From NCBI GenBank assembly GCA_022703505.1, contig JAKLDN010000008.1:158422-222421 (forward strand): a stretch of DNA of 64,000 nt, given 5' to 3'. The position numbers and the translations under genes were made by a program. The notes under the pieces are model-generated. The model saw only the letters and a program-made list of their open reading frames with translations, searched no databases and was not told the origin of the DNA. Each line of letters starts with the position of its first letter. Positions within the stretch are counted from its first letter, which is position 1. The stretch is from Spirochaetota bacterium (GTDB lineage Bacteria; Spirochaetota; Spirochaetia; Treponematales; UBA12059). Shown one piece after another: positions 26,441 to 54,669 of this stretch.

Positions 26441-28504
26441 ATGCTGGGCGCGATTTCAGGGGACGTCCTGGGCTCGTTGTACGAGGCCTGGTCGATCAAG
26501 GACAAGAACTTCCGGCTCTTCCACGAGCTGGACCGGCCCACCGACGACTCCGTCCTCTCCCTGGCGGTGGCCAAGGCGATCCTGGACGCCGACGCCGAGG
26601 GCCGGTTGCCGGAAGCCGGGGACTACGAGCGGGAACTCCGGGCCTTCGGCCGCCGCTACCCCGACGCGGGCTACGGGGGCTCCTTCCGGGCCTGGGTGAA
26701 CGATCCCGTAGGCAAGCCCTACGAAAGCTTCGGGAACGGCTCGGCCATGCGGGCCTCCGCCGTGGGCTGGGCCTTCGGGGACGCGGAAACCGTCCTGACC
26801 CAGGCGGAACTCTCGGCCGCCCCGACCCACGGCCACCCGGAGGGCATCAAAGGAGCCCAGGCCGTCGCCCTGGCGGTCCTCCGGGCCCGGACGGGATCCT
26901 CGAAGGAGGAAATCCGCTCGGAGCTCTCCCGCCGCTTCGGCTACGACCTGGGCCGGACCGTGGACTCGATCCGGCCGGGCTACCCCTTCGAGGTCAGCTG
27001 CCAGGCCTCGGTCCCGGAGGCGATCGTCGCCTTCCTGGATTCCCGGGATTGGGAGGACGCGGTGCGGAACGCCGTCTCCCTGGGGGGCGACGCGGACACC
27101 CAGGCCTGCATCGCCGGGGCGATCGCCGAGGCCTTCTACGGCGGGGTTCCGCCCCGGGTCCTGGCCTGGGTCCTGCCCCGGCTGGAGGCCGGCCTCCTTT
27201 CGACCCTCTCGGACTTCGCGCGCCGCTTCCTGCCCGCCGACCGGGCCGCGGCCGTGGCCGCCGAGACCGCGGCCCGCGGTCTGCCCCGGGGAGTACCGGG
27301 GGCGGGCGGGAACCGGAAGGCCGGCGGAGCCGGCCCCGCCCCGGGCGACCGGAAGCGCCGCGGAGCGGCGCATGCCGGAGACCCGGGCAGGGACCCCGAC
27401 ACCCGGCACCCCCTGGCCCCCGCCCCGGGCTACCGGGTGGTCCTGGCCGGCTCGACCCGGGCCCGGATCGCCGACTACGCACGGCGCCTTTCCGCGGACC
27501 CAGGTCTCGCGGGGGCGCGGCTCCAGGCGGCCCTGGCGGACCTGGCTGTCCCCAGGTTTGACGCGGCCTGGCTCCTCGTCTCCCTCCTGGCCACCAAGAA
27601 GCCCCGGATCTTCGCGGAGAGCGAGGTGGCCGGGGACGGCTCGGACTGGACCCGGGAGGAGCTCGGGCTTTTGGGGGACATCGGCTTCGCGGTGCCCGTC
27701 ACGGTCTTCGACGACGGCCGCCACTCCGCCCCCCGGGTACACTCGACGCCCTTCGGGGCCACCCTGCTCTTCGCCCCCGGGGCCCTGTTGGCAGGGAGGC
27801 GGGGATCCCCCGCGGACGGGCACGTAGCCCCCGGCGGCCACATCGACCCGGTCCGGTACGGGGCCCTCTACGAGGGGCGGCTCCTCCCCCTCCTCCAGTA
27901 CGCGAGCGCCGTCTCCTCGGCGGCGGGCCGGAAGGCCCTGGTCACCGTGCCGGGCCTGGGCTGCGGCCAGTTCGCCGGACCTTTCCGGGGCCGCCTGGGA
28001 CCGTACCTGAGGGACGCCCTGGCGGGGATCCTGAAACGGAACGCGAAGATCCTGCCGGGCATCCGGGCCGTCCGCCTCGATCCCTACGACGAATGCGGGA
28101 ACGAGGACCGGCGCATCGGACGGATCGCCTTCCGGGTCCGCCCCCTGGCGGTGAACGAACGGAAGGGCACGGGGCTCGGCCTGCCCCAGCTCCGCCCGCC
28201 CCGGGACTACCAGGAGCCCGGGGACGACTTCTCGGACTGCGACCTCTTCAGCGTCGTCGCCTGGGACCCCGTCTCCTGGCCCGGGAACGACTACTGGGCC
28301 GGGGCCCGGGCCACCGACGACGGGGTCAAGGCCGCGGCCACGGACGCGATGTTCGCCCTTTCGGGCTTCCGGGGCCGCTACGACCCGGAGACCTGCGGAT
28401 ATCTGCCGCCCCCGGGGGTCCGCGCCTGGGAGGACCTGGTCCTGGAGCAGCGCCTGGTCCTGCGGGCCGTGGACAACGTGACGGTCGTCGGATCTCCGGG
28501 ATGA
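26441..28504 (+). CDS. ADP-ribosylglycohydrolase (DraG/ARH family) fused to a 400-aa uncharacterized C-terminal domain
   Basis: N-terminal ARH motifs (DDSVLSLA, GNGSAMRASAVGW, GGDADTQACIAGAIAEAFYG). The C-terminal half has a TVPGLGCGQFAG glycine-rich loop and no family I can name. AAGGAGG RBS. Confidence 0.75.
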   Translation: MLGAISGDVLGSLYEAWSIKDKNFRLFHELDRPTDDSVLSLAVAKAILDADAEGRLPEAGDYERELRAFGRRYPDAGYGGSFRAWVNDPVGKPYESFGNGSAMRASAVGWAFGDAETVLTQAELSAAPTHGHPEGIKGAQAVALAVLRARTGSSKEEIRSELSRRFGYDLGRTVDSIRPGYPFEVSCQASVPEAIVAFLDSRDWEDAVRNAVSLGGDADTQACIAGAIAEAFYGGVPPRVLAWVLPRLEAGLLSTLSDFARRFLPADRAAAVAAETAARGLPRGVPGAGGNRKAGGAGPAPGDRKRRGAAHAGDPGRDPDTRHPLAPAPGYRVVLAGSTRARIADYARRLSADPGLAGARLQAALADLAVPRFDAAWLLVSLLATKKPRIFAESEVAGDGSDWTREELGLLGDIGFAVPVTVFDDGRHSAPRVHSTPFGATLLFAPGALLAGRRGSPADGHVAPGGHIDPVRYGALYEGRLLPLLQYASAVSSAAGRKALVTVPGLGCGQFAGPFRGRLGPYLRDALAGILKRNAKILPGIRAVRLDPYDECGNEDRRIGRIAFRVRPLAVNERKGTGLGLPQLRPPRDYQEPGDDFSDCDLFSVVAWDPVSWPGNDYWAGARATDDGVKAAATDAMFALSGFRGRYDPETCGYLPPPGVRAWEDLVLEQRLVLRAVDNVTVVGSPG

Positions 28505-28618
28505 GAAGGCTGAAGCGCCCGGACCTCCGGGAGCCCGAACTCCTGAAGGACCTTGGAAGCCGCGTGGCTCCGGAGGCGATCGTGACGTGACGAGAATCGG
28601 CGCCGAATCAAAAAAGAT

Positions 28619-28655
28619 GGAAAACGATGTAAACACCATTGAAAACCATGTAAAA
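28619..28655. promoter_or_regulatory. AT-rich 16-bp direct repeats spaced 21 bp apart upstream of the ZIP transporter gene
   Basis: GGAAAACGATGTAAAC and TGAAAACCATGTAAAA. Conspicuously AT-rich against 68% GC background. Confidence 0.45.
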
Positions 28656-28813
28656 AAGTTTGCGCGCGCGTCGGGAGGACGAAGCCGACCGCCTCATGCT
28701 TCGTGAGCCCGCACCCTCCCTCTGGCGCCCGGCCCGGCCATGCCCGATACTTGAACCGAGGCGGCCGCCGCCCGGACACTCGCTCCCTTCGGCGCGGCCG
28801 GACTGGAGGTTCC

Positions 28814-30112
28814 ATGGATCCCCTGGCGATATCCCAGGCCCTCTCGGCCCTGGTCTTCGGGGCCCTGTCCGCGGGGAGTCTCCTCCTGGGCGCCTGGACC
28901 GGAATATTCCTGAAGCCGCCGCCCCGGGTCTCCGCCGCGGTCATGGCCTTCGGCGCGGGGGCCCTCTTCGCGGCCCTGTCCCTGGAACTGATCGGCGAGG
29001 CGGTGGAGCGCCTCCACGGGAACTTCTGGCCCATCGGACTGGGCTGCGTGGCCGGGGGCCTGCTCTTCGTCACCCTGGACCACCTGGTGAACGGCGCGGG
29101 AGGCTTCCTCCGCAAGCGCTCCACCCTGTCCCGGCGCCTCCGAGCGGACCGGAGGAAGGACGTCCGGCTCCTCCTGGAGAGTCTGGCCAAGGTCCCCCTC
29201 TTCGCCAGCCTGCCCCCCGAGGAGGTCCGCAGCCTGGCGGACCAGGTGACCCGGGTGCGCTGCGACGCCGGCACCCCGGTCATCCGCACCGGGGAGCCCG
29301 GGGCCGAGCTCTACCTGGTCGAGTCCGGCCGCCTGGAGGTATCCCGGGGGGGCGCAAGCCTGGCGGTCCTCGGGCCCGGGGACATGGTCGGGGAGATGGC
29401 CCTGCTCACCGGGGAGACCCGCACCGCGGACGTGACGACCCTGGAAGCGGCGGTCCTGCTCACCCTGCGCAAGGAAGCCTTCGACCGACTCCTGGCCGCG
29501 AACCCCCGGCTCCGGGAGGCGGTGGAGAGACTGTCCGGCCAGCGGCGGGAGGCCCTGGAGAAGGCGGCCGCCACGGTGGACCCTGCGGCCTGGGCCCGGA
29601 AGGCCGGGACCGGGGACTGGAAGCCCAGCTCCCTGGAGCTGGACGAGGCCTTCGCCCAGGCTGGGGGAAAGAAGAAGGGCGGGGCCCCCATGGGTATCTG
29701 GCTGGGCATCCTCCTGGACGGCGTCCCCGAGTCCGCGGTCATCGGTGCCAGCATGATCGGGGCCGAGAAGGCCAGCCTGGCCCTGATCCTGGGACTCTTC
29801 ATCGCCAACTACCCCGAGGCCCTGTCCAGCGCCGTGGGGATGCGGAAGATGGGCATGTCGGTGTGGAAGATCACCGCCCTCTGGGGCTCCATCGTGGCCC
29901 TGACCGCGGTGGGCGCGGGGATCGGCAACCTGGCCTTCCGCTCGGCCCCCGGGGAGCTGGTGGCCCTCTTCGAGAGCCTGGCCGCGGGCTCCATGCTGGC
30001 CATGCTGGCGGAGACCATGATGCCCGAGGCCTACGAGCACGGCGGTTCCGTCACCGGTATGGCCACCATCCTGGGCTTCGTGTCCGCGGTCTTCCTGCGG
30101 GTGGCGGGGTGA
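28814..30112 (+). CDS. ZIP-family metal transporter with an inserted cyclic-nucleotide-binding (CAP_ED) domain
   Basis: TM helices and GIxLHxxxEG-like ZIP blocks at both ends. Central cNMP fold (FASLPPEEV...GEPGAELYLVESG...GEMALL..RTA). GGAGG RBS. Confidence 0.75.
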   Translation: MDPLAISQALSALVFGALSAGSLLLGAWTGIFLKPPPRVSAAVMAFGAGALFAALSLELIGEAVERLHGNFWPIGLGCVAGGLLFVTLDHLVNGAGGFLRKRSTLSRRLRADRRKDVRLLLESLAKVPLFASLPPEEVRSLADQVTRVRCDAGTPVIRTGEPGAELYLVESGRLEVSRGGASLAVLGPGDMVGEMALLTGETRTADVTTLEAAVLLTLRKEAFDRLLAANPRLREAVERLSGQRREALEKAAATVDPAAWARKAGTGDWKPSSLELDEAFAQAGGKKKGGAPMGIWLGILLDGVPESAVIGASMIGAEKASLALILGLFIANYPEALSSAVGMRKMGMSVWKITALWGSIVALTAVGAGIGNLAFRSAPGELVALFESLAAGSMLAMLAETMMPEAYEHGGSVTGMATILGFVSAVFLRVAG

Positions 30113-30205
30113 TTCGGAATTCCGAGCCCCCTCGATAATCAGGATGGATTCCCGGAACCGTGATAGACTGAAGGATAGAGAATCATTACAAAGGAGCGTC
30201 CCTTC

Positions 30206-31186
30206 ATGAAGATCCACGTCATCGGCTGCGGCAACGCCTTTTCCAGCGAGTCCTTCAACCAGTCCTTCGTGATCGAGGAAGCCGGGCGGCGCATGCTCAT
30301 CGACTGCGGCATGCAGACCCCCCAGGCCCTGGTCACGGCCCGGTACAAGCCCCAGGACATCCACGACATCTACGTGAGCCACCTCCACGCGGACCACGTC
30401 GGGGGCCTGGAGTACTTCGCTTTCGCCCGGTACGACTGGGCCAAGCATCCCCGGTCCTGGTCGGAGGGGACCTACGCCCCCCGGCTGATCGGCAACGTCC
30501 AGCTCCTCCGGGACCTCTGGGACAAGACCCTCCGGGGCGGCCTGGAATCCATGGAGGGTTTCGTCTCGAACCTGGAGACCTTCTTCGAGCCGGTCCCCGT
30601 CGAGCCGAACAAGCGCTTCGAGTGGCAGGGCTGGACCGTGGACCTGATCCAGCAGATCCACATCATGTCGGGCTCGGTGATCATGCCCTCCTTCGGCATC
30701 CTCTTCAGCAGGACGGGCCGCAAGTCCGTGTACTTCGTGACGGACAGCCAGCACTGCTCGCCCCGGCAGATCGAGGAGTACTACAAGCGCGCGGACCTGA
30801 TCTTCCAGGACTGCGAGTGCACGGGCATGGACCTTCGCTTCCCCGAGGGCGCCAAGACCTACGTCCAGGACGGGGTCCCGAAGGCCTGGCCCGAGGACGA
30901 GATGGAGGCCCTGGACCTCCTGGCCCGGGGGATCGAGCCCGTGAAATGGTCCCGGTACAAGTTCTCCTCGGGGGTCCACGCCAACTACGCCCAGCTGGCG
31001 GGCTACGAGAGCGCCAACTCCATCAAGCTGGATCCCCAGGTCAAGGCCAAGATGTGGCTCTCCCACTACCAGGACTACGTCCTCATCGGCAAGGACCACT
31101 TCGGCAACGAGGTCGACTGGGCCGCGGAGGCGAAGAGAGACGGGTTCGCGGGCTTCGTCAAGCTGGGCCAGCGATTCGAGGTCTGA
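30206..31186 (+). CDS. MBL-fold metallo-hydrolase
   Basis: HLHADHVGG (HxHxDH) motif. AAGGAG RBS. Confidence 0.75.
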   Translation: MKIHVIGCGNAFSSESFNQSFVIEEAGRRMLIDCGMQTPQALVTARYKPQDIHDIYVSHLHADHVGGLEYFAFARYDWAKHPRSWSEGTYAPRLIGNVQLLRDLWDKTLRGGLESMEGFVSNLETFFEPVPVEPNKRFEWQGWTVDLIQQIHIMSGSVIMPSFGILFSRTGRKSVYFVTDSQHCSPRQIEEYYKRADLIFQDCECTGMDLRFPEGAKTYVQDGVPKAWPEDEMEALDLLARGIEPVKWSRYKFSSGVHANYAQLAGYESANSIKLDPQVKAKMWLSHYQDYVLIGKDHFGNEVDWAAEAKRDGFAGFVKLGQRFEV

Positions 31187-31226
31187 GGTACGGAGGGTCC
31201 GGAATGGAACCGTCCGGGAGGTCCCC

Positions 31227-32774
31227 GTGAAGCGGCGTCCGCGGGACTCCGAGGAGCTCGAGGAACTCGAGGCTGTCGAGGAAGACGAGTCAGTCGAAGA
31301 GCTCGAGTCGGTCGAGGACGCGGAGCCGGTCCCCCAGGACTCGGAGGCGGTACCGCTGTACTCCGAACTTCCGGACTTCGCGTCCCCCGAGGCTTCCCTG
31401 GGCCCTCCGGGCGTGCCGGCCGACGAATCGATCCGGCGGGGATTCGAGGCGGAGATGCGGATCCTCCAGGCGGAACTGGAGAGGATCCGGCAGGCCAAGA
31501 GCGACGCGGCACGGCATGAAACACCGACCAGCGGCAGGAAGCACACAAAGGAGAAACCCATGGAAGAACTCAGGGACCCGGGCTCGAGCCCACAGACCTA
31601 CGGCACCAAAGAATACATCAAGCGGCGCCGCAAGCTTTCGGGCCTTTTCTTCGAGACCGCCCTGCCCAACGAGTACCTGGTGGAGGTGGGGCGCAAGGAC
31701 GTCCGACCCCGCCTGGGGGGCCGGCGATTCCGGCTCTTCCGTAAGTTCCTGCGCATCCCCGCCTCGGTCCAGACCCTGGTCTTCACCACGGACAACGCCA
31801 ACGTGGACTACCAGGGGATCGGTGTGGACGGCTACGCCTCCTGGCGGGTGGACCCGGAGCATCCCGAGGTCGCGGTCCGCACCCTGGACTTCTTCGACGA
31901 GGACGACCCCATGGCTCGCACCAACGCCGAGCTCCGGACGATCTGCGTGGAGGCGGTCCGCCACGTGATCTCCAACATGAGCATCGACGACGCCCTCAAG
32001 AAGAAGGACGAGATCGCGGAGAACCTCTCCCGCCAGCTCAAGGGGATCGAGCGGAAGTGGGGCATCCTCTTCGACCAGGTGGGGATCGAGAAGGTCCGCA
32101 TCATGTCGGACCGCCTGTTCGAGCAGCTCCAGGCCCAGTTCCGGGACGGGCTCCGGTTGGAGGTGGAGCGCAAGCGGATCGCCACGGACCGCCAGATCGC
32201 GGCGGAGCAGAACGCCATGCGGGAGGGCACGGGGCTGGAGACCATCCTGACCAACCAGAAACTCGAACTCTCCGAGGTGGAGCAGAAGGCCCGGGTCCAG
32301 GAGGCCCAGGCGGCGGAGGCCCACCGCCTGGCCCTCCAGAAGATCGAGATAGACCGCGCGACCTTCCGGGAAGAGCAGTCCTTCCGCACCGAGAAGGAGA
32401 AGGAGGGCCATGCCCTGGCACTCCTGGAACGGACACTGAAGACGGAACTGGCCGCCGCGGAACTCCGGCTCCTCAAGGAAGAGTCCTCGGTGGAGGACCT
32501 GCGGGCGAAGATCGGGGAGCGCCAGCTGGAGCTCCAGCGCCTCCAGCGGGAGGTTTCCCAGGTCTTCTCCGACCAGGCCCTGGCCAGCGAATTCATCCAG
32601 CGCCTGCCCTCCCTGTTCGCGGCCCTCCAGATCGACAACTACACCGTCCTGGATTCGGGCTCGGGCCAGGTCACGCCGGTCACCCGGGTGCTGACGGAGG
32701 TGGCCGCGGCCCTGAAGGGCCTGGACCTCAAGGGACTCCTGGGCGGGGGAAAGGACGCGGCCCCCGGGGCCTGA
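31227..32774 (+). CDS. SPFH/band-7 (flotillin-like) protein with acidic N-terminal repeats and long coiled coil
   Basis: GTG start after GGGAGG. EELEELEAVEEDESVEELESVED N-terminus. SPFH core. Extended EA-rich coiled coil. Confidence 0.65.
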   Translation: MKRRPRDSEELEELEAVEEDESVEELESVEDAEPVPQDSEAVPLYSELPDFASPEASLGPPGVPADESIRRGFEAEMRILQAELERIRQAKSDAARHETPTSGRKHTKEKPMEELRDPGSSPQTYGTKEYIKRRRKLSGLFFETALPNEYLVEVGRKDVRPRLGGRRFRLFRKFLRIPASVQTLVFTTDNANVDYQGIGVDGYASWRVDPEHPEVAVRTLDFFDEDDPMARTNAELRTICVEAVRHVISNMSIDDALKKKDEIAENLSRQLKGIERKWGILFDQVGIEKVRIMSDRLFEQLQAQFRDGLRLEVERKRIATDRQIAAEQNAMREGTGLETILTNQKLELSEVEQKARVQEAQAAEAHRLALQKIEIDRATFREEQSFRTEKEKEGHALALLERTLKTELAAAELRLLKEESSVEDLRAKIGERQLELQRLQREVSQVFSDQALASEFIQRLPSLFAALQIDNYTVLDSGSGQVTPVTRVLTEVAAALKGLDLKGLLGGGKDAAPGA

Positions 32775-32839
32775 CCGGGGAGGGAGCGGCGGGCCGGGTT
32801 CGGAAGGAACCGAGGGGCGGGGCCCGGGCGCCGGGCCCC

Positions 32840-33286
32840 TCAAAGGGCGAGTTCGAAGACCTCCTCCCCGTCGTCCAGGATACCCGTGTCCCGGAAGCCC
32901 GCCTTGAGGTAGACCTTGATGGCGTGGGCGTTCTCCGGGTGGGTGGACAGCCGCACGCGGGCGGCCGCGGGGTAGTCCCGGCGGATCTCCGCCACCAGGA
33001 GCCGGACCGCGGCGCTCCCGATCCCCCGGCCGTGCAGGTCCGGCAGGACGTACATCCGAACGATCCAGGGGATGCCCCGGTCCGCCGGATCGTCCGCGTC
33101 GTCGTCGACGCCGCTCATGCAGAATCCCGCGAGCTTGCCGTCCGCGTAGATCGCCCGGGGCCGAAGGGACGGGTAGAGCCAGGCCTGAGCCAAGCTCCGG
33201 ATATTCGCGGCCACGTGGTCCTGCTTGGGCATGGCCACGATCTCCTCGAAATTGTCCTTGTCCACGGGGCGCAGTTCCACGTTCAT
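32840..33286 (-). CDS. GNAT-family N-acetyltransferase
   Basis: LHGRGIGSA acetyl-CoA-binding motif. Last gene of the overlapping six-gene operon. Confidence 0.8.
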   Translation of the reverse strand: MNVELRPVDKDNFEEIVAMPKQDHVAANIRSLAQAWLYPSLRPRAIYADGKLAGFCMSGVDDDADDPADRGIPWIVRMYVLPDLHGRGIGSAAVRLLVAEIRRDYPAAARVRLSTHPENAHAIKVYLKAGFRDTGILDDGEEVFELAL

Positions 33287-34194
33287 GGTGCCTCCTTGTT
33301 CGATTCCGGCAACGGCTCCGCAGCCCGGGCCCAGGCCGCGGGCACGCCGCCGGGGGCCGAGAGGGCCACGATGCCCCCGACGATGGCGCAGGTGGTGTCC
33401 CGGTCGATGCCGCAGGCGGCGTCCCGGAGGGCCGCGGCGTAGTCGGAGGGCCGACGGGCGGCGACCCAGAGGCAGAAGGGGACGGTGTCGAAGGCCGCCA
33501 CGGCCATGCCGGAGCCGAGGCTCCAGGCGGCCCTCTCGGCCGGCACGTCCCCCAGGACCCGGGCCTTCCCGATCCCCTCCCGCACCCGGCCGGACCCGAG
33601 CACGTCGAGCACGGCGGTAAAGAATGCGTCCCGGTCGAAGGACCCCGTCCCCTCCCGGCCGGACGCGGCCGCTAAGGCGGCGGCCGCGGCTACGGCGGCC
33701 GCCCCGTCGATGCCTTCGGGATGGGCATGGGTAGGCTCCGCGCTTGTCGCGCCCTCCGAGGCGGCCCGGGCGGGGTCCCCCGCGTACCAGGCCCCGATCG
33801 GCGCGGCCCGCATGGCTCCCCCGTTGCCCCAGGAACCGGTTCCCCCGAAGGCCGCCCGGGAAACCGCGCGCCAGTCCTTTCCCCGGGCTATCTCGGACAG
33901 GATCGCGTGGGCCCCTCCCCAGTAGCCCCGGGCGGGGTCCTCGGCGTAGCGGAGGGCGAAACGCCGGGCCAGGTCGTCCGGGTCGATCCGTCCCCGGGCC
34001 TCCAGGGTCTCCACGACGGAGACCGCCATGGCCGTGTCGTCGGTCCAGCGCAGGGACCCCGGCGGAACCTGTCCGGCCTCGATCCGGGCCGCGACCTCCA
34101 CGGGGTCCCGGGAGAAACAGGCTTCCCCGTACGCATCCCCCGCGGAGAGCCCCAGCAGGGACAGGCGGGCGAGGATTCGGCGGCCGTCGTTCAC
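33283..34194 (-). CDS. ADP-ribosylglycohydrolase-family protein (second copy in window)
   Basis: DDTAMAVSV, GNGGAMRAAPIG, GIDRDTTCAIVGGIVA ARH-family blocks. Confidence 0.8.
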   Translation of the reverse strand: MNDGRRILARLSLLGLSAGDAYGEACFSRDPVEVAARIEAGQVPPGSLRWTDDTAMAVSVVETLEARGRIDPDDLARRFALRYAEDPARGYWGGAHAILSEIARGKDWRAVSRAAFGGTGSWGNGGAMRAAPIGAWYAGDPARAASEGATSAEPTHAHPEGIDGAAAVAAAAALAAASGREGTGSFDRDAFFTAVLDVLGSGRVREGIGKARVLGDVPAERAAWSLGSGMAVAAFDTVPFCLWVAARRPSDYAAALRDAACGIDRDTTCAIVGGIVALSAPGGVPAAWARAAEPLPESNKEAP

Positions 34195-34790
34195 GATTCC
34201 TCCTCCACGGGCTCCGCGTCCTGGACCACCGGCAGTTCCTCCATCAGGGACGCCAGCTCCCGGGCGAAGTCCGCGATCCTCGAGTCCTGCATCACTTTGG
34301 CCTCGGCCTCCAGGCGGGAGCCCAGGATCCGGTCGAAGCAGCGCACGAAGCGGAGGTTGGGCAGGGCCTGGGGCCGGACCTCCCGAAGCCTCCGGACCGC
34401 CTCGGCCTCGCTGCCGGTCTCCAGGTAGAGGAGCGCCAGGGCCGCCGCGGTGGACCGGGACACCCCCGCCCAGCAGTGCACCACGTAGCCGGACGCCTCC
34501 CGGCGGGTGCGGCGCCAGAAGGCCACGACCCTGCGGGCGTCCCGGACCTCGGGGATCCGGGCCAGGAAGGGATGCCGGAGATGGGACCGCTCGGTGGCGT
34601 CCTGGAAGGACAGGCGCAGGATGCTGCGGAAGCGCGGTCGGAACTCGGGGCGCACCCGGGTGCCCGGCTCCCGCTCCGCCCAGGGGACGCGGGGATTCCC
34701 GATGGACACCAGGTGGTCCGGCAGGGGGACGCCGACCCTCACCAGGTCCGCCAGCTCCTCCTCCCCGAAGACGAGAATCGGCAAGGTCAT
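34191..34790 (-). CDS. Dual-specificity (Cys-based) protein phosphatase
   Basis: VVHCWAGVSRST CX5R P-loop. Internal Met start with a 4-nt overlap to the upstream gene. The longer ORF prefix is Pro/Gly junk. Confidence 0.7.
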   Translation of the reverse strand: MTLPILVFGEEELADLVRVGVPLPDHLVSIGNPRVPWAEREPGTRVRPEFRPRFRSILRLSFQDATERSHLRHPFLARIPEVRDARRVVAFWRRTRREASGYVVHCWAGVSRSTAAALALLYLETGSEAEAVRRLREVRPQALPNLRFVRCFDRILGSRLEAEAKVMQDSRIADFARELASLMEELPVVQDAEPVEEES

Positions 34791-35556
34791 GCCCACCTCG
34801 GGTTCGGAACCGGGACGGCTGCGGGGATCCGCCGGACCTTTCGGGTTTCGACCTCGATGTCCCAGAAGACCCGGGCGTGGGGATACGCCCCGTTCACGAA
34901 GCGCCCCCGCCGGCCGGGCCGGTTGTGGATGTGGCCGAAGAGATGTAGCCGGGGCTCCCGGTCCCGGACCAGGTCCCGGAGGGCGGGGATGCCGTGGATC
35001 AGCTCCGCCCGGCCGTCCAGGATCCCCGCGGGCGGGGAATGGGTGACCAGGATCGATTTCCGGTCCACCCGGGGCGCCAGGGCCCGGACCTCCCGGTCCA
35101 GGTCCGCCTCGCTCCGGTGGTCGACGGTCCACCGGTACCCGACGAAGTTCCAGGTCCCGAACTCGATCCTCCGTCCGTGCAGGTTCACGATCCCTCCTCC
35201 ATCCGCCCAGGGGGTGTCGTCGTGGTTCCCGGGCACCAGGAAGACGGGCTTTCCGGCCCCGCCCAGGACCTCCCGGAACCGGCCTTCCAGGATGGACAGC
35301 CCCCTCAGGTTAATCTCGTTGAAGCGCCGGCCTACGGTTTGCCAGGGCGACGGGTCCTCGGGATCCGCCAGGTCCTCCAGAAGGTCGTCCGGGTCCGCCC
35401 CCAGTTCCCGGACCAGGAACTCGTCGGGCAGGCGGATGTCGTCCAGGAGGTCCCCCGCCAGGACCCCCGCGTCCCAGGGACCCTCCGCCAATGTCCGGGC
35501 GAAGAGACGGTACGCCGGCATGAGGGCGTGGAGATCCGAGGAGAAGAGGAGCCTCA
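34787..35556 (-). CDS. Calcineurin-like metallophosphoesterase
   Basis: SDLH, GDLLD, GNHD, HSPP, GHIH metallophosphoesterase motifs. GGAGGGGG RBS. Confidence 0.75.
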
Positions 35557-36723
35557 TTCCGCCCCCTCCAGTTCCTCGAGGCCCTCGTCCAGGACCGCGC
35601 GGAAATGGGCGGCCAGGGCGGCCTTCCGGCGCTCCAGGAGTTCCTCGTCCGAGGCCGAGGGGAGGAAGGGCGCGGGCGCCCCGGACCGGGGCGGGGCGAG
35701 CATGAGGTCCTCGACCAGCCGGGAGAGGTCCGCGGGGTCGAACCGGGCCTCCAGGTACCGGTGGTTTCCGGAGGGATCCGCCGTCCAGCGCCCGGAGCCT
35801 TCCCTGTCCACCTCGAGCCGGCCCGGCGCGGAGAGCCGGAAATACCGGGTCCCCGTCACGGCGGCCAGGACAGCGGCCTGGTCGTAGCAGGCCCAGTCCA
35901 GGCCCACCGTGTGGAGGCGGTAGGCGGTGCGCACGGGGTTCCCCCGGGGCGCCTCGCGGCAGAACCGGGCGCCCGCCTGGAGGGAGCCCCCGAGTTCGCC
36001 GTCGCAGATCACGACGGGGGTCGGCCATCCGGCTAGGACGCGCCGGGCGGCCCCGGGATCCTGCCGGAGATTGTACTCGATCCCCTCGGGGATCCGGCCG
36101 CACATGAGGACGAGCTTCCGCACCGAACGGCGGACCAGGTCCGGCCCGGACAGGGGGCTGGTTCCGTCGGGGCCCGAGTCGAGGAGGGCCGCCAGGTTGA
36201 GCATCGGGCCGATGCCCACGAGTACCGCGTCCGCCCGATCGCGGCCCGCCAGGAGCCGCCGGATAAGGCCGACCGCCTCCGGGTCCGCTTCGTGCGCTGT
36301 TCCGGCCTGCGCGGGCGCGGCGGCCGCCTCAGGATTGTTACCGGGCACGGCTTCAGCCTGCGCGGACACGGCGGCCGGTTCCGGACCGCCCGGGGCCGCG
36401 ACGCCCTCCCCGGGTCCGTAGGCCTCCGCCAGGAAGCGGATGTACGAGAGGTCCGCGTGCTCGTCCAGGAAGCCCGGCCGGCCGAAGGCGCCGACGGGTA
36501 TGTCCGGTCGGCCGTACCAGCGGTTGACCGCCCGGATTGCGGGGACGCCCCAGCGTGCGGAGGTGCAGTAGGTCATCCCAAGGATCTCCGCCAGGCCTCG
36601 ATCCGCAAGGGCGTGGAGCACCGCCAGGGCCCCCGCGTCGTCCACGTCCTCGTTCAAGTCCGTGTCCAGGATCAGGGGTAGCGGCCGTCGCCGTCTTCGC
36701 GGGAGGGGAGGAAGCTCAGCCAA
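35554..36723 (-). CDS. Inosine-uridine-preferring nucleoside hydrolase-family protein
   Basis: LILDTDLNEDVDDAGAL (DxDxxxDD) N-terminal motif. Confidence 0.8.
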   Translation of the reverse strand: MAELPPLPRRRRRPLPLILDTDLNEDVDDAGALAVLHALADRGLAEILGMTYCTSARWGVPAIRAVNRWYGRPDIPVGAFGRPGFLDEHADLSYIRFLAEAYGPGEGVAAPGGPEPAAVSAQAEAVPGNNPEAAAAPAQAGTAHEADPEAVGLIRRLLAGRDRADAVLVGIGPMLNLAALLDSGPDGTSPLSGPDLVRRSVRKLVLMCGRIPEGIEYNLRQDPGAARRVLAGWPTPVVICDGELGGSLQAGARFCREAPRGNPVRTAYRLHTVGLDWACYDQAAVLAAVTGTRYFRLSAPGRLEVDREGSGRWTADPSGNHRYLEARFDPADLSRLVEDLMLAPPRSGAPAPFLPSASDEELLERRKAALAAHFRAVLDEGLEELEGAE

Positions 36724-37735
36724 GGAACACCTCCCCTTCGTCGGTCACCTTCAGGAGCGTCTTGCAGGACTTGCAGCGCCCCCGCATGGGCCGGGCCGAC
36801 CGGGTTCGGGCCCCGCAGATGGGGCACTTGAAGATCTTCGGGAACTCAGGCTCCTCCAGTCCGTCCGAACTCCTTTTCAGGAGCGCCATGGCTTCCGCCT
36901 CGGTATCGACGATCTCGAAGTACTGGTGGAATAATCCCAGAAGCAGAAATACTTCATCGATCTTCGGGGGGATTCCGAAGAGGACCAGGCGGCCGTCCCG
37001 GAGCTTGACCGTCTTCAGGATACCGGTCAGGTGCCCGATTCCCGACCCTGGCCATTGAAGCCCGGAGAAGTCCAGGGCCAGACGGATGAACTCGGCCTCC
37101 ACGCGCCGCAGGACCAGGCCGTAAAACCAAGTCCCGGCCTGCCGGTCCAGGTAGCCCGAGTACCGAATGACCAGGCCGCCGGGGAGGTCGGACAGAGGTT
37201 CGAAGACGGCCTTGTTACCGTTGCCGTCCTCCTCTTCCCGGGGAAGGTCCGGCGCCGGAGCGCCGGGCGAGCGGTCCGCGGCCGCGGCCGCTAGGATCGC
37301 GGCGGCTTCCGTAGGATCCCGGGCTGGAGGGAAAAGCGTCTCGAGCCTGGAAATCCGGAGGCTTTCCCGGATGCAGGGCGAAGGCAGGACGACCACAGTT
37401 CCGCCCCGGGGATGGACCGCCTTCAGAGCAGCCGTAAACAGATGGATCGCGTGATCGCCGCAGGACTCGACCCTCCAGGTATCGAACACGACACCGTGCG
37501 TGTCCAGATCCTTCATATACCGCAGAAGCAGGTCAACGGCCCAACCATCATTCCCTCGATCAAACTTGCCGTCGACCTCCACGAGCAGGGTGCCCTCCGG
37601 CGTACCGGGCACTCGGTCCTTCAAGGGTTGGGCTGTCAGGCCGAGCTTGCCGGTTGGGTCCGTCCGTCGTTCCGGGGATGGAGTCATGAAGGGGCTCCAG
37701 GATTTTCCATCGTTTTCCTTGGGTTCCATATTCAC
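36716..37735 (-). CDS. STAS-domain (anti-sigma-antagonist-like) protein with C-terminal zinc ribbon
   Basis: Two STAS-like segments, then CPICG...CKSC. Start could be 37735 or the later Met at 37687. Confidence 0.55.
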   Translation of the reverse strand: MNMEPKENDGKSWSPFMTPSPERRTDPTGKLGLTAQPLKDRVPGTPEGTLLVEVDGKFDRGNDGWAVDLLLRYMKDLDTHGVVFDTWRVESCGDHAIHLFTAALKAVHPRGGTVVVLPSPCIRESLRISRLETLFPPARDPTEAAAILAAAAADRSPGAPAPDLPREEEDGNGNKAVFEPLSDLPGGLVIRYSGYLDRQAGTWFYGLVLRRVEAEFIRLALDFSGLQWPGSGIGHLTGILKTVKLRDGRLVLFGIPPKIDEVFLLLGLFHQYFEIVDTEAEAMALLKRSSDGLEEPEFPKIFKCPICGARTRSARPMRGRCKSCKTLLKVTDEGEVFLG

Positions 37736-37785
37736 AGGGTGCTGACAAAGGCGATGGCGCCTTTGTCAGCACCCTGCCAGGAAGA

Positions 37786-37827
37786 GTATAGCACGGGGCG
37801 GAGGCGTTCCCGGATCCCCGCTTCGGC
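37786..37827. repeat. Perfect 19-bp stem / 4-nt loop hairpin (CAGGGTGCTGACAAAGGCG-ATGG-CGCCTTTGTCAGCACCCTG)
   Basis: Directly visible inverted repeat in the divergent intergenic region. Immediately 5' of the STAS-gene ATG on the minus strand. Confidence 0.7.
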
Positions 37828-37958
37828 CTACCCCGCCCTCGGAAGCTCGATGGTCGCCGTGGTCCCCTCGCCAGCTGGCAGGACGCCGGTTCATTAAAGG
37901 TTTTTGGGTTTTTCATTTTGGTAGTTGTCATATTGGACAATTACGCTATTATGGATGC

Positions 37959-45043: not shown

Positions 45044-45250
45044 GTCGACGAAGCACGCGGCGCCTCGTTACCTTACAAACTACTGGAAATCGCCGAAGGG
45101 CGATGCCCTTCGGCGTCGAGCATATCCGGCGGATCGACGAAGCGCGAAGCGCTTCGTTGCCTTCAAACTACTGGAAATCGCCGAAGGGCGATGCCCTTCG
45201 GCGCCAAGCATATCCGGCGGATCGACGAAGCGCGAAGCGCTTCGTTGCCT
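45044..45250. repeat. About 2.4 tandem copies of an 88-bp unit, each with two hairpins
   Basis: Units start near 45044, 45132 and 45220. Each contains CGACGAAGCGC-gaa-GCGCTTCGTTG and CGCCGAAGGGC-gat-GCCCTTCGGCG stem-loops. Copy 1 is diverged. Confidence 0.7.
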
Positions 45251-45292
45251 TGAAAAAACGACGGCGTACCCTACGGTACGCCGTCGTTTTTT
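45251..45292. terminator. Bidirectional rho-independent terminator
   Basis: AAAAAACGACGGCGTACC-cta-CGGTACGCCGTCGTTTTTT. Perfect 13-bp stem flanked by an A6 and a T6 run. Confidence 0.85.
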
Positions 45293-45295
45293 CAA

Positions 45296-45340
45296 GCTCC
45301 CCCGCGGTGACTCGAACACCGGACCCAGTGGTTAACAGGC
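45296..45340 (-). other. tRNA 3'-end-like fragment (T-arm + acceptor 3' strand); candidate att site at the island boundary
   Basis: Minus strand reads GGGTC-CGGTG-TTCGAGT-CACCG-CGGGGGA-G. The upstream 50 nt are AT-rich with no D-arm, anticodon arm or matching 5' acceptor. The terminator lies directly 3' of it. Confidence 0.5.
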
Positions 45341-45566
45341 GAACTTTCTATTACTTTGGATTATCACCGCCTGTCACTATTTATAATTATAGCAAGTATT
45401 TGCTTAGTTTTCAATAGTATGCGTTAGCAAGCGTTTTTATGGTTTTTTTAGATTTTTGCGCCCAATTTGCGCCCAGTTATTTATTGCTAACTATGCAATA
45501 GAAGAGGAAGCTCACCAAGCATTTTTATAGCCTTCGTCCTCAGTATGTACATGCTTCACCTCCTTA

Positions 45567-46823
45567 TCAAGCTCTTTTAAAAGCTCCCTGCATCCGCTCA
45601 ATTTCAGGCCTACGGATGCCCAGAGCCTTCGCCCGCACCTGCCACCTCGAGACCACCCCGCGTATCGCCTCCATGATCGAGAGTGCCTCGGGCTTTGAGA
45701 GCCTGAAGTACTGCGCGACCGATAGGGCCAAGTCGAAATCCAACGAATTGTCATGCTCGTCGATGGCGAGGGAGAGGCCCGCCGAATCAGGCGAGGGATT
45801 GATGTCGTAGGCGGGAGAAAGCCACCAGCCCTTCGCATCGAGGAGGAAGCCATGATTCCGAAGATGGTCGTCGGTGTTGGAAACGGCGATGGAAAACACG
45901 ATGCGTTTCCAGAGCTCCCGCAGATCGGCGTCGGGCCGGGATCCGGAGCGCATGATGAACTCCGCGAGCTCGAGGTAGCTTGCGCCGGCCTCGGCGTCAT
46001 CGCCGTCCTTGCGGCCGAGCAAGGTCATGGCGGAGGCGAAATGGATACGTCCCTCTCCTTGGCGATCGAAGCGCTTCGTCATGAAGGTGGAGCCTCGCTT
46101 CGAGAAGGAGTCTAGCCTGCATTCGCTCATCTCGATGCCAGCTGCGCAGGCGAGGTCGGCGACGAGCATCTCCCAAGCGCCTGAGTCGCGTTCATCATCC
46201 TTGCCCGGGAACTTGGCTATCCAGAGTTCGCCCTTCTCGTCCACTACGCTAGCCTTGGGCCTAGCGCCTCCGAGCGAGGAGCCGGGCGCAATCAACATGG
46301 CGAGCCAGGGGTCGAGCTTGTCGTCATCCTCTTCATGTTCCGCGAGGAAACTCGCATACTCGAGATCGCGTAGCGTTGACCACGGCGGGGCTGCCATAGC
46401 CGTATCCAAGCTCTGATAGGCTTCGTTGCCTGGTATCTTAAACCGCAAGGCGCCCAAACGATTCTTATCATGAACGCCGAGGAGGTACTCCGCTTCTCCG
46501 AGCCTTCGCGGCGTCCGCCCTTCCTTCCTTGCCAAGATGGCCTCGCGCCGCCTCATGAGGACGCGGCCCCAACGATCGGGAGAGGAATCCAGGAACAGGC
46601 CGAAATTTGGCTTACCCACCCCGGCATACTGGGGTCCCTTATAGAATCGCAGATCAGGGTCGAGCGTTCGGTTGTCGTCGCGGCGAAGCCATGCCGCGTC
46701 GTACTCGAAGGAGAAGACTTCCTTGCCGCGCGGCGCTTGGACGGACAACGTGCCGAGATGGGCAACGGATCCAAGGCCGAGCCAATCGGCATACACTTCG
46801 ATAGTGCGCCCGGCGTCGCTCAT
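45567..46823 (-). CDS. hipA: HipA-family Ser/Thr kinase toxin
   Basis: 418 aa. SNTDDHLRNHGF catalytic loop. Confidence 0.85.
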   Translation of the reverse strand: MSDAGRTIEVYADWLGLGSVAHLGTLSVQAPRGKEVFSFEYDAAWLRRDDNRTLDPDLRFYKGPQYAGVGKPNFGLFLDSSPDRWGRVLMRRREAILARKEGRTPRRLGEAEYLLGVHDKNRLGALRFKIPGNEAYQSLDTAMAAPPWSTLRDLEYASFLAEHEEDDDKLDPWLAMLIAPGSSLGGARPKASVVDEKGELWIAKFPGKDDERDSGAWEMLVADLACAAGIEMSECRLDSFSKRGSTFMTKRFDRQGEGRIHFASAMTLLGRKDGDDAEAGASYLELAEFIMRSGSRPDADLRELWKRIVFSIAVSNTDDHLRNHGFLLDAKGWWLSPAYDINPSPDSAGLSLAIDEHDNSLDFDLALSVAQYFRLSKPEALSIMEAIRGVVSRWQVRAKALGIRRPEIERMQGAFKRA

Positions 46824-47149
46824 GATTCATCCTTCTTCGGCGACTTTCGGGCACGCCGTCGGCTAGGAAGCTTGGCGTCCTGGAGAGCGCGTCCGAGCTC
46901 GTCATCGAGCGCGACAGCCTCGAGGTCCTTCTCGAGTCCCAGCACGAACAAGACCTGTATCCAAGTAGCCATCGATACCGAGCCGGAGCCATTCTCGAGG
47001 GCGCTCAGGGTCTGTCGGCTGATGCCCGCCCGTTCGGCAACCATCTCGGCGCTGAGATCGCGTCGGAGCCGCGCCAGTCGGATATTCTCGCCGAGCGTTT
47101 CGAGGCTACGTTGGACACTGGGCAATAGGACCGGGAGTTTCTTAGGCAT
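46820..47149 (-). CDS. hipB: HipB-like XRE-family HTH antitoxin
   Basis: LSAEMVAERAGISRQTLSALENG HTH. 4-nt overlap with hipA. Confidence 0.75.
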   Translation of the reverse strand: MPKKLPVLLPSVQRSLETLGENIRLARLRRDLSAEMVAERAGISRQTLSALENGSGSVSMATWIQVLFVLGLEKDLEAVALDDELGRALQDAKLPSRRRARKSPKKDES

Positions 47150-47353
47150 AACGTATAATATAATAGGCATAAAAGGTATATCTGTCAAATTATTACGACG
47201 TAAAACTGAATAACACAACTCACATGCAAAGGTGGTTCTTACAAAATGTCGAGAATCGGACTACTTTGATGTTCCTGACACGGCCACTTCATTGACCATA
47301 CCCTAGAAGGTATCTCCATGGTTTATACCTTGATGGGTAAATGGTAAGAAAGG

Positions 47354-47779
47354 CTATTGAACGATAGGCGTCTTCCCGTCCTTAACCTTGCTAGTCGTCT
47401 TAGCTGCAATCCGCGAGGCGGAGCCCCGGGACTTAGAAACTCCACGAGCACTGGAGGGTTGAGTAGCATAGGTCATAATCCGTTCACGCTGAATGAAGCC
47501 ATGGTCCTTCCGGAGGACTTCCAGAAAACGGCAAGCAGCGCCATTCGGGACGTTCCGACCAGCTTCCCAGGCCTCAACGGTCTTCTTAGCGACTCCAAGA
47601 ACTTGGGCGAAAACAGTCTGGGAAAGCCCAAGAGCGAGCCGGAGTGCCTTAACCGCATGGGCATCATAGGTGGGAAGCGGTGCTATCTTGATCGCTGTAG
47701 TCTTGAGCTTAAGCTTGCCCTCTTGATGAGCCTTGACCTCAGAGAGGCCACGCATGATGCTCTCGAACGCTTCGCCCAT
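47354..47779 (-). CDS. HigA-like HTH antitoxin
   Basis: LRLALGLSQTVFAQVLGVAKKTVEAWEAG HTH. Sits immediately downstream of the toxin. Confidence 0.7.
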   Translation of the reverse strand: MGEAFESIMRGLSEVKAHQEGKLKLKTTAIKIAPLPTYDAHAVKALRLALGLSQTVFAQVLGVAKKTVEAWEAGRNVPNGAACRFLEVLRKDHGFIQRERIMTYATQPSSARGVSKSRGSASRIAAKTTSKVKDGKTPIVQ

Positions 47780-47780
47780 A

Positions 47781-48109
47781 TCAGTCTCCTAACAGTCCCT
47801 TTACGTACGTCTTGATCGCCTGCTTCTCTTCGGAGCTCAGGTTGTCCTTCTCATCCTTACCGAAAACAGTGATGAGATAGATCAGGCCGGACGCCCGCAT
47901 ATCGAGATAGATCGTCCGCAGGCTCCCGGATTCCCCCTACCTTCGCGCGCCCAGCGCAGCTTACGCACACCACCTGTTCCCTGGATGACCGGAGCGATCT
48001 CCGGATGCTCGAGGAGGTAGTTCTGGAGCTCGCGGAGGTCATCCTCCGTCATCCCGAGGGCCTTCCATCGGGATTGGAACTCCTTGGTCTCTACAAAGGT
48101 TCTCGTCAT
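47781..48109 (-). pseudogene. RelE/HigB-family toxin disrupted by a -1 frameshift in a G5 homopolymer
   Basis: N-terminal MTRTFVETKEFQSRWKAL...GVRKLRWAREGRG in one frame. C-terminal ESGSLRTIYLDMRASGLIYLITVFGKDEKDNLS in another. Adding one G at about 47935 restores a 108-aa toxin. Confidence 0.7.
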
Positions 48110-48302
48110 CCAGTATACCAGACCACCCTATCTAATAGGGTACTTAGAATGAATATAGCTCTGTGAGAGACTCTCGTCTAGAAGAGGGAAGGATATGAAA
48201 GAGGAAACTCGATAAAGCGGTTTGACGCGCTCGAGCGAGTACTAGCAGGTACAGAATGTCTCTCCCCCATATCGCGTTGCCCTGAAACAGCCTGTGGGTT
48301 AA

Positions 48303-48338
48303 GACTAAAAAGCCCGCCCCATAAGGGAGCGGGCCAAG
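48303..48338 (-). terminator. Intrinsic terminator after the 327-aa gene
   Basis: Minus strand GGCCCGCTCCC-ttat-GGGGCGGGC followed by TTTTTAG. Confidence 0.55.
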
Positions 48339-48340
48339 GG

Positions 48341-49324
48341 TCATTCCAGGAAGCTATAACGGGACTTCATGTAGCGCGCCCAGGGTTCCAGCTCCGGGTG
48401 CCGGTCAGTCGGGACATACCGGAAGAGCTGTTCAGTCGGGATGTACCTGAACTCGTCGGGCATGAGGAGCAGTGTCGGCCACAGCTCGTAGAGGTCGCGG
48501 AAGAACTTACGGTAATGCGGCGAAGTGATGGACCGAAGTTCACGATTAGCTCCGACGGCAATGTGGACCACGATGACGTTATCGACCTCGGGGATGCCGA
48601 CCTCCAGGATGCGGGATGCCAGGAGTTGATGCCGGGCAAGCTGATACATCGGCTCATAGAGCAGGTATTCGATTCGCGGTACAACCTCCAGATTGAACGG
48701 TGTAAAGGGACCATAGAAGATCTCGCGGTAGGTATCCACGCGATCCGAGCCATCGGTCCTAAACCTCTTGTACTGGGACGAATAACTCTCGGTAAACTTA
48801 ACCTCGCACAGCATGAAGACCTTGCGATCATCCATGGTCTCAAAGCACATCGCAGCGTCGATGGAGGTTGAGCCAGCACCGCGAATCCGGTCGGTACCGA
48901 CATGAGATTCCTCCCCTAGGTAGTTGATGTCGCCCTGCCACTCGAAGGCGATGAACGCATCCTCCTCCACAGGGAGCATTCGTTTGATCTCGGGGAATTG
49001 CGGACGAAGGAAGTCAGCCAGAGCATCCGGGCGATTGCGGAACGGGAAGAGCGTGTTGACGCAGAATATCTGGCTGGAACAGGTATGGTTGGTTGGCAAG
49101 CCAGGAAGCGCGGCTCCATGCCAGACGATGCCAAGGCGCTCGAAGGTAGCCAGGGCATCGTCCCGGATCTCATGGAACAAGTTGTAGGCGGCGAGCTCAA
49201 GCGGGAAGCAGAATGGGTACATACGGCTCCGGTATAAGCCCGGAGCCCTGGCCTCGCGCGGGAGAGCCTTGCTGGTCAGCTTCCACTCCAACTGCATCTT
49301 CTTGGCGACGGAGAGGTAATTCAC
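48341..49324 (-). CDS. Hypothetical protein, possible PD-(D/E)xK-type nuclease
   Basis: 327 aa. DDRKVFMLCEVKF resembles a D...E-x-K patch. Sits downstream of the RecT-like gene. Confidence 0.35.
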   Translation of the reverse strand: MNYLSVAKKMQLEWKLTSKALPREARAPGLYRSRMYPFCFPLELAAYNLFHEIRDDALATFERLGIVWHGAALPGLPTNHTCSSQIFCVNTLFPFRNRPDALADFLRPQFPEIKRMLPVEEDAFIAFEWQGDINYLGEESHVGTDRIRGAGSTSIDAAMCFETMDDRKVFMLCEVKFTESYSSQYKRFRTDGSDRVDTYREIFYGPFTPFNLEVVPRIEYLLYEPMYQLARHQLLASRILEVGIPEVDNVIVVHIAVGANRELRSITSPHYRKFFRDLYELWPTLLLMPDEFRYIPTEQLFRYVPTDRHPELEPWARYMKSRYSFLE

Positions 49325-49338
49325 GATAAAGTCCTCCC

Positions 49339-50253: not shown

Positions 50254-50410
50254 GGGAGACCTCCTAGGGGATGGATCTCCAATATCAGTAGTATCGCCAT
50301 ATACGACCAGGAAGTAGAAATGTCCCAACCGAAGCCCAAGCTGGATGTTCATTGACAGCACAATTGGCGCGGTGTACTGTCCATAAGATACTTAACTGGA
50401 GGTAAAAACG

Positions 50411-50611
50411 ATGGCAGATGTATCTACGTCAGGATTCAATGGAACGACAGACATCCCAACGCAAGTCTTCGAAAGCTTCCTTTCGGAGCTGAAGAGCACC
50501 GGAGCATCGAGCGAGATGATCGAAAGACTTCGCAAGACGTTGCTCGAGGATCACATCTTCACAGAAGGCGCTCTAAAGACCGCCGTTCTAGGTGAGGAGA
50601 CGTCGCTATGA
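50411..50611 (+). CDS. Small 66-aa protein translationally coupled to the ATPase
   Basis: GGAGGT RBS. Stop overlaps the ATPase start (ATGA). Confidence 0.5.
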   Translation: MADVSTSGFNGTTDIPTQVFESFLSELKSTGASSEMIERLRKTLLEDHIFTEGALKTAVLGEETSL

Positions 50612-53061: not shown

Positions 53062-53240
53062 TGTCGCTTCTAGCTTTCGAAAGATAGAAGGCACTTTCTC
53101 CTCCTCGGGCTAGGTTTGTTAATGCCATCCTTAGACATGATAGCATTATACTATTGGACGGGATCTCCTACAGTATAGAGAGGGATTTATCAGCGCAGGG
53201 AATATGGCGGAAAACCAAAACCTACAATCAAGCATCATGT

Positions 53241-54146: not shown

Positions 54147-54158
54147 TATCTTAAGCGC

Positions 54159-54494: not shown

Positions 54495-54669
54495 TCACCT
54501 CACATTGTCATGAAAATCGCCCAAAGCTGTTCCCGTACATCCCAACCCGCCGCATCCCACTTCATCGCCCAGACGAAGTGCCCTTTGACCTTCGACGCGC
54601 AGGCCCGTGATCTACCCTTCTCTCGCAGGATTCGGTTAGTGTGGAACTCTAGGCAGTTCAGCACTGCTA

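Follow-up and report, generated by a model that had tools for sequence, protein, structure and literature searches.

What does a perfect hairpin mean when it stands between the promoter and the first gene of a bacterial operon: is it a regulator that belongs to the operon, or a piece of repeat DNA that has landed there? The question is raised by a flawless 19-bp stem with a 4-nt loop, CAGGGTGCTGACAAAGGCG-ATGG-CGCCTTTGTCAGCACCCTG, at positions 37735-37776 of the 64-kb stretch of spirochaete DNA that was analysed, called the window throughout. The stem was found just as the original prediction had described it, but the coordinates given for it then (37786-37827) were wrong: the palindrome sits 51 nt leftward, and 37786-37827 in fact holds a -10-like box and the spacer upstream of the box. 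The left arm, CAGGGTGCTGACAAAGGCG, occupies 37735-37753, the loop ATGG 37754-37757 (plus strand) and the right arm, CGCCTTTGTCAGCACCCTG, 37758-37776. The earlier statement that such a stem is very unlikely to arise by chance is borne out, since a search for perfect stems with loops of 3-12 nt in 100 dinucleotide-preserving shuffles of the window gave longest stems of 8-15 bp as opposed to 19 bp. Each arm is present only once in the 64 kb, even when 3 mismatches are tolerated. The hairpin dominates the predicted RNA fold of its region (-49.7 kcal/mol, z = -5.9), in which the Shine-Dalgarno region is unpaired.

The setting of the hairpin is a divergent intergenic region (37730-37958), as had been stated, bordered by a minus-strand STAS-domain gene and a plus-strand ArsR-type HTH gene. 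The six-gene minus-strand operon proposed earlier is real; its stops and starts overlap, and its products are a STAS-STAS-zinc-ribbon protein, an IU-nucleoside hydrolase, a metallophosphoesterase, a DSP-type phosphatase, an ADP-ribosylglycohydrolase and a GNAT acetyltransferase. The first gene, in its 323-aa form (36716-37687, minus strand), codes for two STAS domains and a C-terminal CxxC...CxxC. The plus-strand gene starts at 37959, and its 345-aa product has the ArsR-type HTH at the C-terminus. On the 3' side of this gene come a gene for a sugar-binding protein, a nagA-like gene and others. A sigma-70-like promoter of this gene, TTGTCA-16-TATTAT (37925-37952, plus strand), lies outside the repeat element described below and ends 7 nt ahead of the ATG at 37959, and the mRNA may be leaderless. 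The 3'-end remnant of a HATPase_c (RsbW-like) kinase gene, i.e. its last 12 codons and stop (...GTTATIELPRAG*), is found at 37828-37867 on the minus strand. In three related genomes (loci L010, L012 and L014) the whole kinase gene is preserved directly upstream of the STAS gene. The window has neither the kinase nor the PAS histidine-kinase block of L010 between its ArsR-type gene and its STAS operon. As only the 3' remnant is left, the STAS protein of the window has lost the adjacent partner-switching kinase. The neighbourhood on the operon side (27900-37700) is unusual in its many genes of nucleotide and ADP-ribose signalling: ADP-ribosylglycohydrolase plus MavL, a cNMP-binding membrane protein, an Apyc1-like metallo-beta-lactamase and a Band_7 protein are followed by the STAS operon, the core of which is kept in every relative fetched.

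Relatives of the STAS protein form a small set (42-82 % identity), and their contigs were fetched for comparison. Six of them supplied orthologous leaders (L010, L012, L013, L014, L016 and L019; 59-82 % protein identity), and two blocks are invariant across the window and all six. One is GTGCTATACTCTTCC (37780-37794, minus strand) with an extended -10-like TGcTATACT at 37793-37785, the other is the RBS region GGAACCCAAGGAAAAC (37712-37727, minus strand), in which a Shine-Dalgarno-like AAGGA stands 5-6 nt ahead of an ATG and which is predicted to stay unpaired when the hairpin forms. In the six relatives the two blocks are 5-7 nt apart (CATAC, CTATATC or CCATATC), whereas in the window the spacer reads, on the minus strand, TGG, the 42-nt palindrome and TGA. 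Aligned with the empty sites of the relatives, the inserted block measures 48 nt (37732-37779, minus strand) and replaces about 1 nt, a net gain of about 47 nt, and the hairpin is absent from all six orthologous leaders. The site is therefore polymorphic for presence and absence, filled in the window and empty in the six orthologues. Because the same invariant blocks are split by a 48-nt block in the window only, the alignment identifies the hairpin as a lineage-specific insertion, found in this species only among those compared. The insertion point is the sole variable stretch between the invariant -10 box and the invariant RBS block. The gene upstream differs among the relatives, being a same-strand RsbW-like kinase (L010, L012, L014), a divergent ArsR-type gene (L016, in which the promoter region of the ArsR-type gene is also conserved) or a divergent peptidase gene (L019); that GTGCTATACTCTTCC is invariant all the same argues that this block is the operon's own, presumed promoter. 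Within the species itself the insertion looks uniform. The identical ArsR-type protein is encoded on nine contigs from independent metagenomes, and in all eight of those that include the intergenic region a 274-nt segment with the hairpin is without differences. The uncultured organism of the window has been recovered repeatedly from metagenomes, also as MAG GCA_035912075.1.

These comparisons bear directly on what the hairpin was first thought to be. A locus-specific leader regulator would be expected to be conserved at the orthologous position, and here no such conservation was seen (none of six leaders) while the flanking blocks are invariant. Searches of Rfam with the intergenic region and with the full-length repeat element gave sub-threshold matches only, to generic hairpin models and mostly to microRNA precursors. 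Three of the origins offered originally, namely a riboregulator, a processing site and an operator, thus lose their ground, as the hairpin is absent from the six orthologous leaders (L016 included) and has no Rfam match.

The start codons tell a similar story. The hairpin had been placed 3 nt upstream of the first in-frame ATG; an ATG is indeed in frame at 37729, but the distance is 5 nt. To say that the hairpin abuts the start codon is misleading, since this adjacent ATG was made by the insertion junction (...CCCTGTGAATATGG in the window vs ...CATACGG in the relatives) and is absent in all relatives. The conserved start codons are those at 37710 and 37687, the latter being the start of the 323-aa STAS form, 48 nt beyond the hairpin. 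Gene callers are split between a 337-aa and a 323-aa STAS form, and most chose the latter; judged by the junction, the 337-aa product from ATG 37729 is an artefact of the insertion. The conserved ATG at 37710, next to the Shine-Dalgarno-like sequence, opens an 8-codon uORF that can be read from the sequence (MENPGAPS*, 37684-37710, minus strand) in the window, in L012 and in L013; in L010, L014, L016 and L019 a 1-nt difference leaves the same ATG in frame with the STAS gene, giving proteins of 329-331 aa. The TGA of the uORF overlaps the STAS ATG at 37687 (ATGA), and this overlap of stop and start suggests translational coupling of the uORF and the STAS gene.

The pattern CAGGGNNNTGACAAN{4,30}TTGTCANNNCCCTG was scanned in one genome per species (185,579 genomes) and gave 25 loci, 19 of which are in five spirochaete MAGs and share the termini CAGGGTGCTGACAA...TTGTCAGCACCCTG. 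The original prediction had named many genome-wide copies as the mark of a generic REP element, and the copy search, run on related genomes, found 7 in Spirochaetales bacterium CTOTU29483, 6 in Treponema sp. AS27yjCOA_177, 4 in uncultured Treponema SRP241326_co1_322 and 1 each in two others; the 64-kb window has 1 copy, by arm search and by profile search. In the multi-copy MAGs the copies are spread over different contigs, a count made under the strict exact pattern. The REP-like element, the last of the options first considered, was thus essentially right in as much as the palindrome belongs to a dispersed repeat family with several copies per genome in related spirochaete MAGs. Judged by sequence, these MAGs are related organisms of species other than that of the window; the GC content of their loci, about 65 %, is similar to that of the window, and homologous coding stretches are at about 70 % nucleotide identity. 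Several spirochaete copies are at contig ends, as is expected of repeats, which break assemblies. The family is previously unannotated and comes from uncultured GC-rich Treponema-like spirochaetes of anaerobic digesters.

The remaining hits of the scans are of a different kind. The other 6 of the 25 loci are single hits in six unrelated taxa, none of them with the internal sequence of the family, and 4 (L052, L055, L069 and L071) are followed by a T-rich run and look terminator-like. A scan of metagenome contigs with the 19-mer arm, in a collection that does not hold the source contigs, gave 32 hits, of which only L024 is a family member; the other 31 were rejected as unrelated single-arm chance matches. 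L024 has the same 14-bp stem as a hairpin directly after a stop codon, and a second hairpin sharing CAGGGnnnTGACAA follows 60 nt on. Two 32-nt palindromes from a scan of viral contigs were of the terminator or chance kind and were likewise rejected as members, and full-length elements had no blastn match among annotated plasmids and phages.

The alignment of ten full-length copies (about 131 nt, 90 % mean column identity) defines an element with three hairpins, which is non-coding and too short for a transposase gene. Its layout is YTAR, then HP1 (CAGGgTGcTGACAAAGGCG-loop-CGCCTTTGTCAgCAG), a spacer hairpin, HP2 (CAGGGTGCTGACAA-9 nt-TTGTCAGCACCCTG) and again YTAR. The HP1 loop is ATGG, AAAG or AGGG in the full-length copies, and the spacer reads GCAATTGC...GAAAAGC-GNRA-GCTTTTC...GCAATTGC, with a GNRA-looped central hairpin. 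The terminal inverted repeats are identical over 14 nt, CAGGGTGCTGACAA and TTGTCAGCACCCTG, in full-length copies and in the short solo copies alike, the window copy included. RNAalifold predicts the three hairpins with 49 pairs; 96.7 % of the cells are paired, as opposed to 36-45 % when the partners are slid, and nine pairs are changed on both sides as opposed to 0-1 when slid, values that were reached in none of 500 shuffles.

The solo copies (37-42 nt) are of two types, and the window copy can be placed among them. Five consist of HP2 only (37 nt; L054, L060, L070, L074 and L075), and two, the window copy and L057, are of HP1 type (42 nt). Searched with a profile HMM built from the full-length copies, the window hairpin is hit at the HP1 module (E = 2.9e-9). 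All 19 nt of its left arm agree with the HP1 left arm of the full-length copies L024 and L063, the outer 14 nt being the terminal inverted repeat of the family, and its loop ATGG is the HP1 loop of L053, L059 and L076, which are also full-length. This loop also sets the orientation of the element, with its left end at 37735 on the plus strand. The right arm runs into an HP2-type terminus, CCCTG, and would be a fusion of the HP1 right arm with a right end of HP2 type (...TTGTCAGCACCCTG). Deletion from one TTTGTCAGCA repeat to the other, in the right arms of HP1 and HP2, would be expected to leave just such an HP1 arm joined to an HP2-type end. L057 is an independent HP1-type solo. Its MAG also has the full-length L068, whose HP1 loop, read as reverse complement, is the TCAATT loop of L057; such collapses therefore appear to recur. 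The same solo is remarkable for its position (1000-1110 of L057, MAG SRP241326_co1_322), as the loop in which it stands belongs to a larger hairpin, CTGCAGGTGAGCC...GGCTCACCTGCAG, that is followed by T7, an apparent insertion into an intrinsic terminator.

Evidence on how the element moves was sought in the 4-mers bordering CAGGG...CCCTG in 18 copies. Identical 4-bp direct repeats flank 10 of them (permutation P = 4e-4), and of the flanks that are not palindromic, 6 repeat directly and 1 in inverted form. The duplications are copy-specific within single genomes (CTAG/CTAG, TTAG/TTAG, CTAA/CTAA), with the consensus YTAR. Matching 4-mers that are direct rather than inverted point to a 4-bp target-site duplication at YTAR. 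A duplication of TA only (IS630/Tc1-like) with an extra inverted-repeat base was tried and rejected, since it fits 2 of the discriminating copies as compared with 6 for the 4-bp model. YTAR is the conserved duplication motif of IS5 (PMC10359306) and appears also in an ISXo1 report. It is a rare motif, seen once every 1.2 kb where the window is GC-rich, and its rarity in such DNA would explain why copies often sit exactly on stop codons: in at least five copies the duplicated TAG or TAA serves as stop codon to a Pfam-verified gene, the domain of which extends to the C-terminus, a count restricted to these five cases after L063 and L074 had been checked. At these two loci the window had been considered as an independent empty site, and was discarded as such since the shared gene is homologous but synteny ends before the insertion point; a 300-codon "ORF" to the left of L063 proved to be an antisense artefact. 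The full-length element of L063 (2581-2711) lies between two successive genes of one strand, apparently inside an operon. The first is a histidine-kinase gene, and its stop codon is part of the duplication; the position suggests that the family tolerates intercistronic sites.

There are points on which the window copy itself does not conform. It has no intact target duplication (the flanks are CTGG and TGAA on the minus strand), and no YTAR is present at the empty sites of the six relatives. The solos L054 and L057 share the CTGG flank and are likewise without duplication. The missing duplication of the window copy could be due to decay of a CTAG or to a different insertion route. Nor did a parent IS come to light: no spaced pairs of the terminal repeat were seen at any fetched locus, E. 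coli InsH had no tblastn match in any of the fetched DNA, and neither this DNA nor the plasmid and phage records yielded a transposase with matching ends.

It is useful to compare the family with short repeats of other bacteria. Its likeness to the MITEs of the IS5 group is the closest: the elements are short and non-coding with identical terminal inverted repeats and, in the related MAGs, several dispersed copies per genome, and the 4-bp duplication with the consensus YTAR is as for IS5. The ends of E. coli IS5 (GGAAGGTGCGAAyAAG) and of the element (CAGGGTGCTGACAAAG) have the core GGTGC.GA.CAA in common, and only this core, so that the resemblance is a lead and not a test. The differences are that each terminus forms a hairpin together with an inverted copy of itself further inside and the stems are kept by compensatory changes, that no parent IS was found, and that the window copy lacks the duplication. 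Spirochaetes including Treponema were unusually MITE-rich in a large survey, in which the present family is not described (PMC11602168). The identical 14-nt terminal inverted repeats and the 4-bp duplication make it most likely that the elements were mobilised in trans by a DDE transposase of IS5 type, and the family is probably new as a family and ordinary in kind.

Correia elements of Neisseria (CREE/NEMIS) are similar in their context: a small inverted-repeat element stands between a promoter and genes and is transcribed as a long hairpin, which may serve as an RNase III substrate or modify expression, and short and long size variants exist in both. Sequence and host are unrelated, however; CREE has the Neisseria-type 26-bp inverted repeat and duplicates TA rather than 4 bp, and its IHF sites and promoter-generating ends were not seen in the present family. 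The 5' stem-loop stabilisers of ompA and papA also resemble the window hairpin, predicted to lie at most 1-3 nt from the 5' end with the RBS free, but those leaders are conserved and locus-specific and their effects were measured, while the STAS hairpin is a recent repeat insertion.

In our view the palindrome is a collapsed copy of a MITE-like repeat which landed between the promoter and the RBS of the STAS operon, and was not originally a regulator of this operon, a reading to which we assign a probability of roughly 0.8. A family member moved in trans by an IS5-type DDE transposase would have inserted, in the lineage of the window, at the transcription start of the STAS operon or no more than about 3 nt away from it. 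Before or after the insertion, a deletion between the TTTGTCAGCA repeats would have joined the left end, the loop and the right end into a perfect 19-bp palindrome. The -10-like hexamer ends at 37785, and a start 6-9 nt downstream would fall at about 37779-37776; as the stem begins at 37776, we infer that transcription starts where the hairpin has its base. An operon mRNA starting there would have 1-3 unpaired nt ahead of a stem-loop of the -40 kcal/mol class (19 bp, extendable by one G-U pair), beside which the Shine-Dalgarno block and both conserved ATGs are predicted to stay unpaired, which may be why the insertion was tolerated.

One property of the family counts against this account and keeps another one alive at low probability: all three hairpins are upheld by compensatory changes, which is more than a plain DDE-type MITE needs. 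The elements are also extragenic palindromes, frequent at the 3' ends of genes, whose full-length form carries two terminal hairpins in the manner of a REP doublet. One could suppose, with REP, BIME and REPIN sequences in mind, that the hairpins are recognised as single-stranded DNA by a Y1 transposase (HUH, RAYT/IS200-like), and the failure to find a DDE transposase in the fetched DNA would agree with it. Y1 transposases (IS200/IS605, RAYT) insert beside a fixed tetranucleotide and make no duplication. The present family, by contrast, has no conserved GTAG-type tetranucleotide; its 4-mers vary between copies and match within a copy, as direct duplications within single genomes, and both ends are true inverted repeats. 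No RAYT gene was noticed in an unsystematic look at the fetched loci. We regard a REP-type origin as improbable. We give no more weight to the broader proposal that the family is not a plain cut-and-paste MITE because its three stems function as folded single-stranded DNA or RNA, be it through a hairpin-recognising transposition that leaves YTAR duplications or as an RNA module selected at gene ends, with the STAS solo co-opted as a 5'-terminal stability or RNase III control of an operon deprived of its partner-switching kinase.

A separate matter is whether the hairpin, whatever its origin, has since acquired a function. It may alter the half-life of the mRNA, by protection of the 5' end or through RNase III cleavage, and could by now be an exapted stabiliser or processing site that sets the expression of the STAS operon. 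The sequence is identical in eight same-species contigs from independent samples, the predicted start puts the stem 1-3 nt from the 5' end, and a perfect 19-bp stem with one G-U pair is close to the size of an RNase III substrate. Precedents exist as well: a Correia element between the promoter and mtrCDE is cut by RNase III (PMC2649163, PMC10969869), and a 5'-terminal stem-loop can shield mRNA from 5'-end-dependent decay, as shown by Emory et al. (1992) and related work cited in PMC3997798. Still, the samples may be near-clonal, so that fixation says little, the sole variable spacer is just where a neutral insertion would survive, and no structure evolved there in any of the six relatives. 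On balance an exapted regulator seems rather unlikely. The leader is invariant apart from one variable spacer, which is where the insertion lies, and the hairpin is most simply read as a passenger that is tolerated there and that may affect the stability of the transcript. Far less can be said for an operator at which the divergent ArsR-type regulator, or another dimeric DNA-binding protein, would control the STAS operon. The perfect palindrome does overlap the predicted +1, and the gene of a winged-helix regulator is 183 nt away, but typical ArsR/SmtB operators are much shorter than 19-4-19, and the same sequence is found at unrelated loci in other genomes. L016 has the same divergent ArsR/STAS pair and no palindrome, which speaks against a conserved operator of this regulator, and we hold the idea to be very improbable. 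Finally, the pattern hits outside the spirochaetes, single hairpins in their genomes and several of them followed by a T-rich run, might suggest an intrinsic terminator or a chance palindrome. A GC-rich stem with a T-run downstream of a gene is what marks such a terminator; the window hairpin has no T-run after the stem, lies between divergent genes and was not flagged by the terminator scan, and chance is excluded by the shuffle test, so that the probability left for either is negligible.

For annotators, the collapsed-repeat reading means that the perfect hairpin of the STAS leader, conspicuous as it is, would be repeat DNA and not a conserved riboregulator. Elements of such kind break assemblies, mark differences between strains and can rewire expression after landing in leaders. 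The STAS leader offers a clean natural example, with an insertion at the presumed transcription start that left promoter and RBS intact.

Two further features of the window deserve mention. Its sole longer perfect hairpin (45249-45296, 22 bp with a 4-nt loop and A6/T6 flanks, CTTGAAAAAACGACGGCGTACC...GGTACGCCGTCGTTTTTTCAAG) stands downstream of a hipA-like gene, at the border between DNA of 63-72 % GC and DNA of 49-60 % GC, and looks like a bidirectional intrinsic terminator. The low-GC part (45500-64000; 49-60 %) is an island in which no transposase or integrase was present among the ORFs tested, and Pfam gave defence genes. Its defence or mobile-type genes code for a HipA-like toxin with HTH partners, a REase-ARP/PDDEXK nuclease, RecT, an SMC/AAA_23 ATPase, a ThiF + DUF6791 protein, a type III restriction helicase and an N6/N4 DNA methylase.
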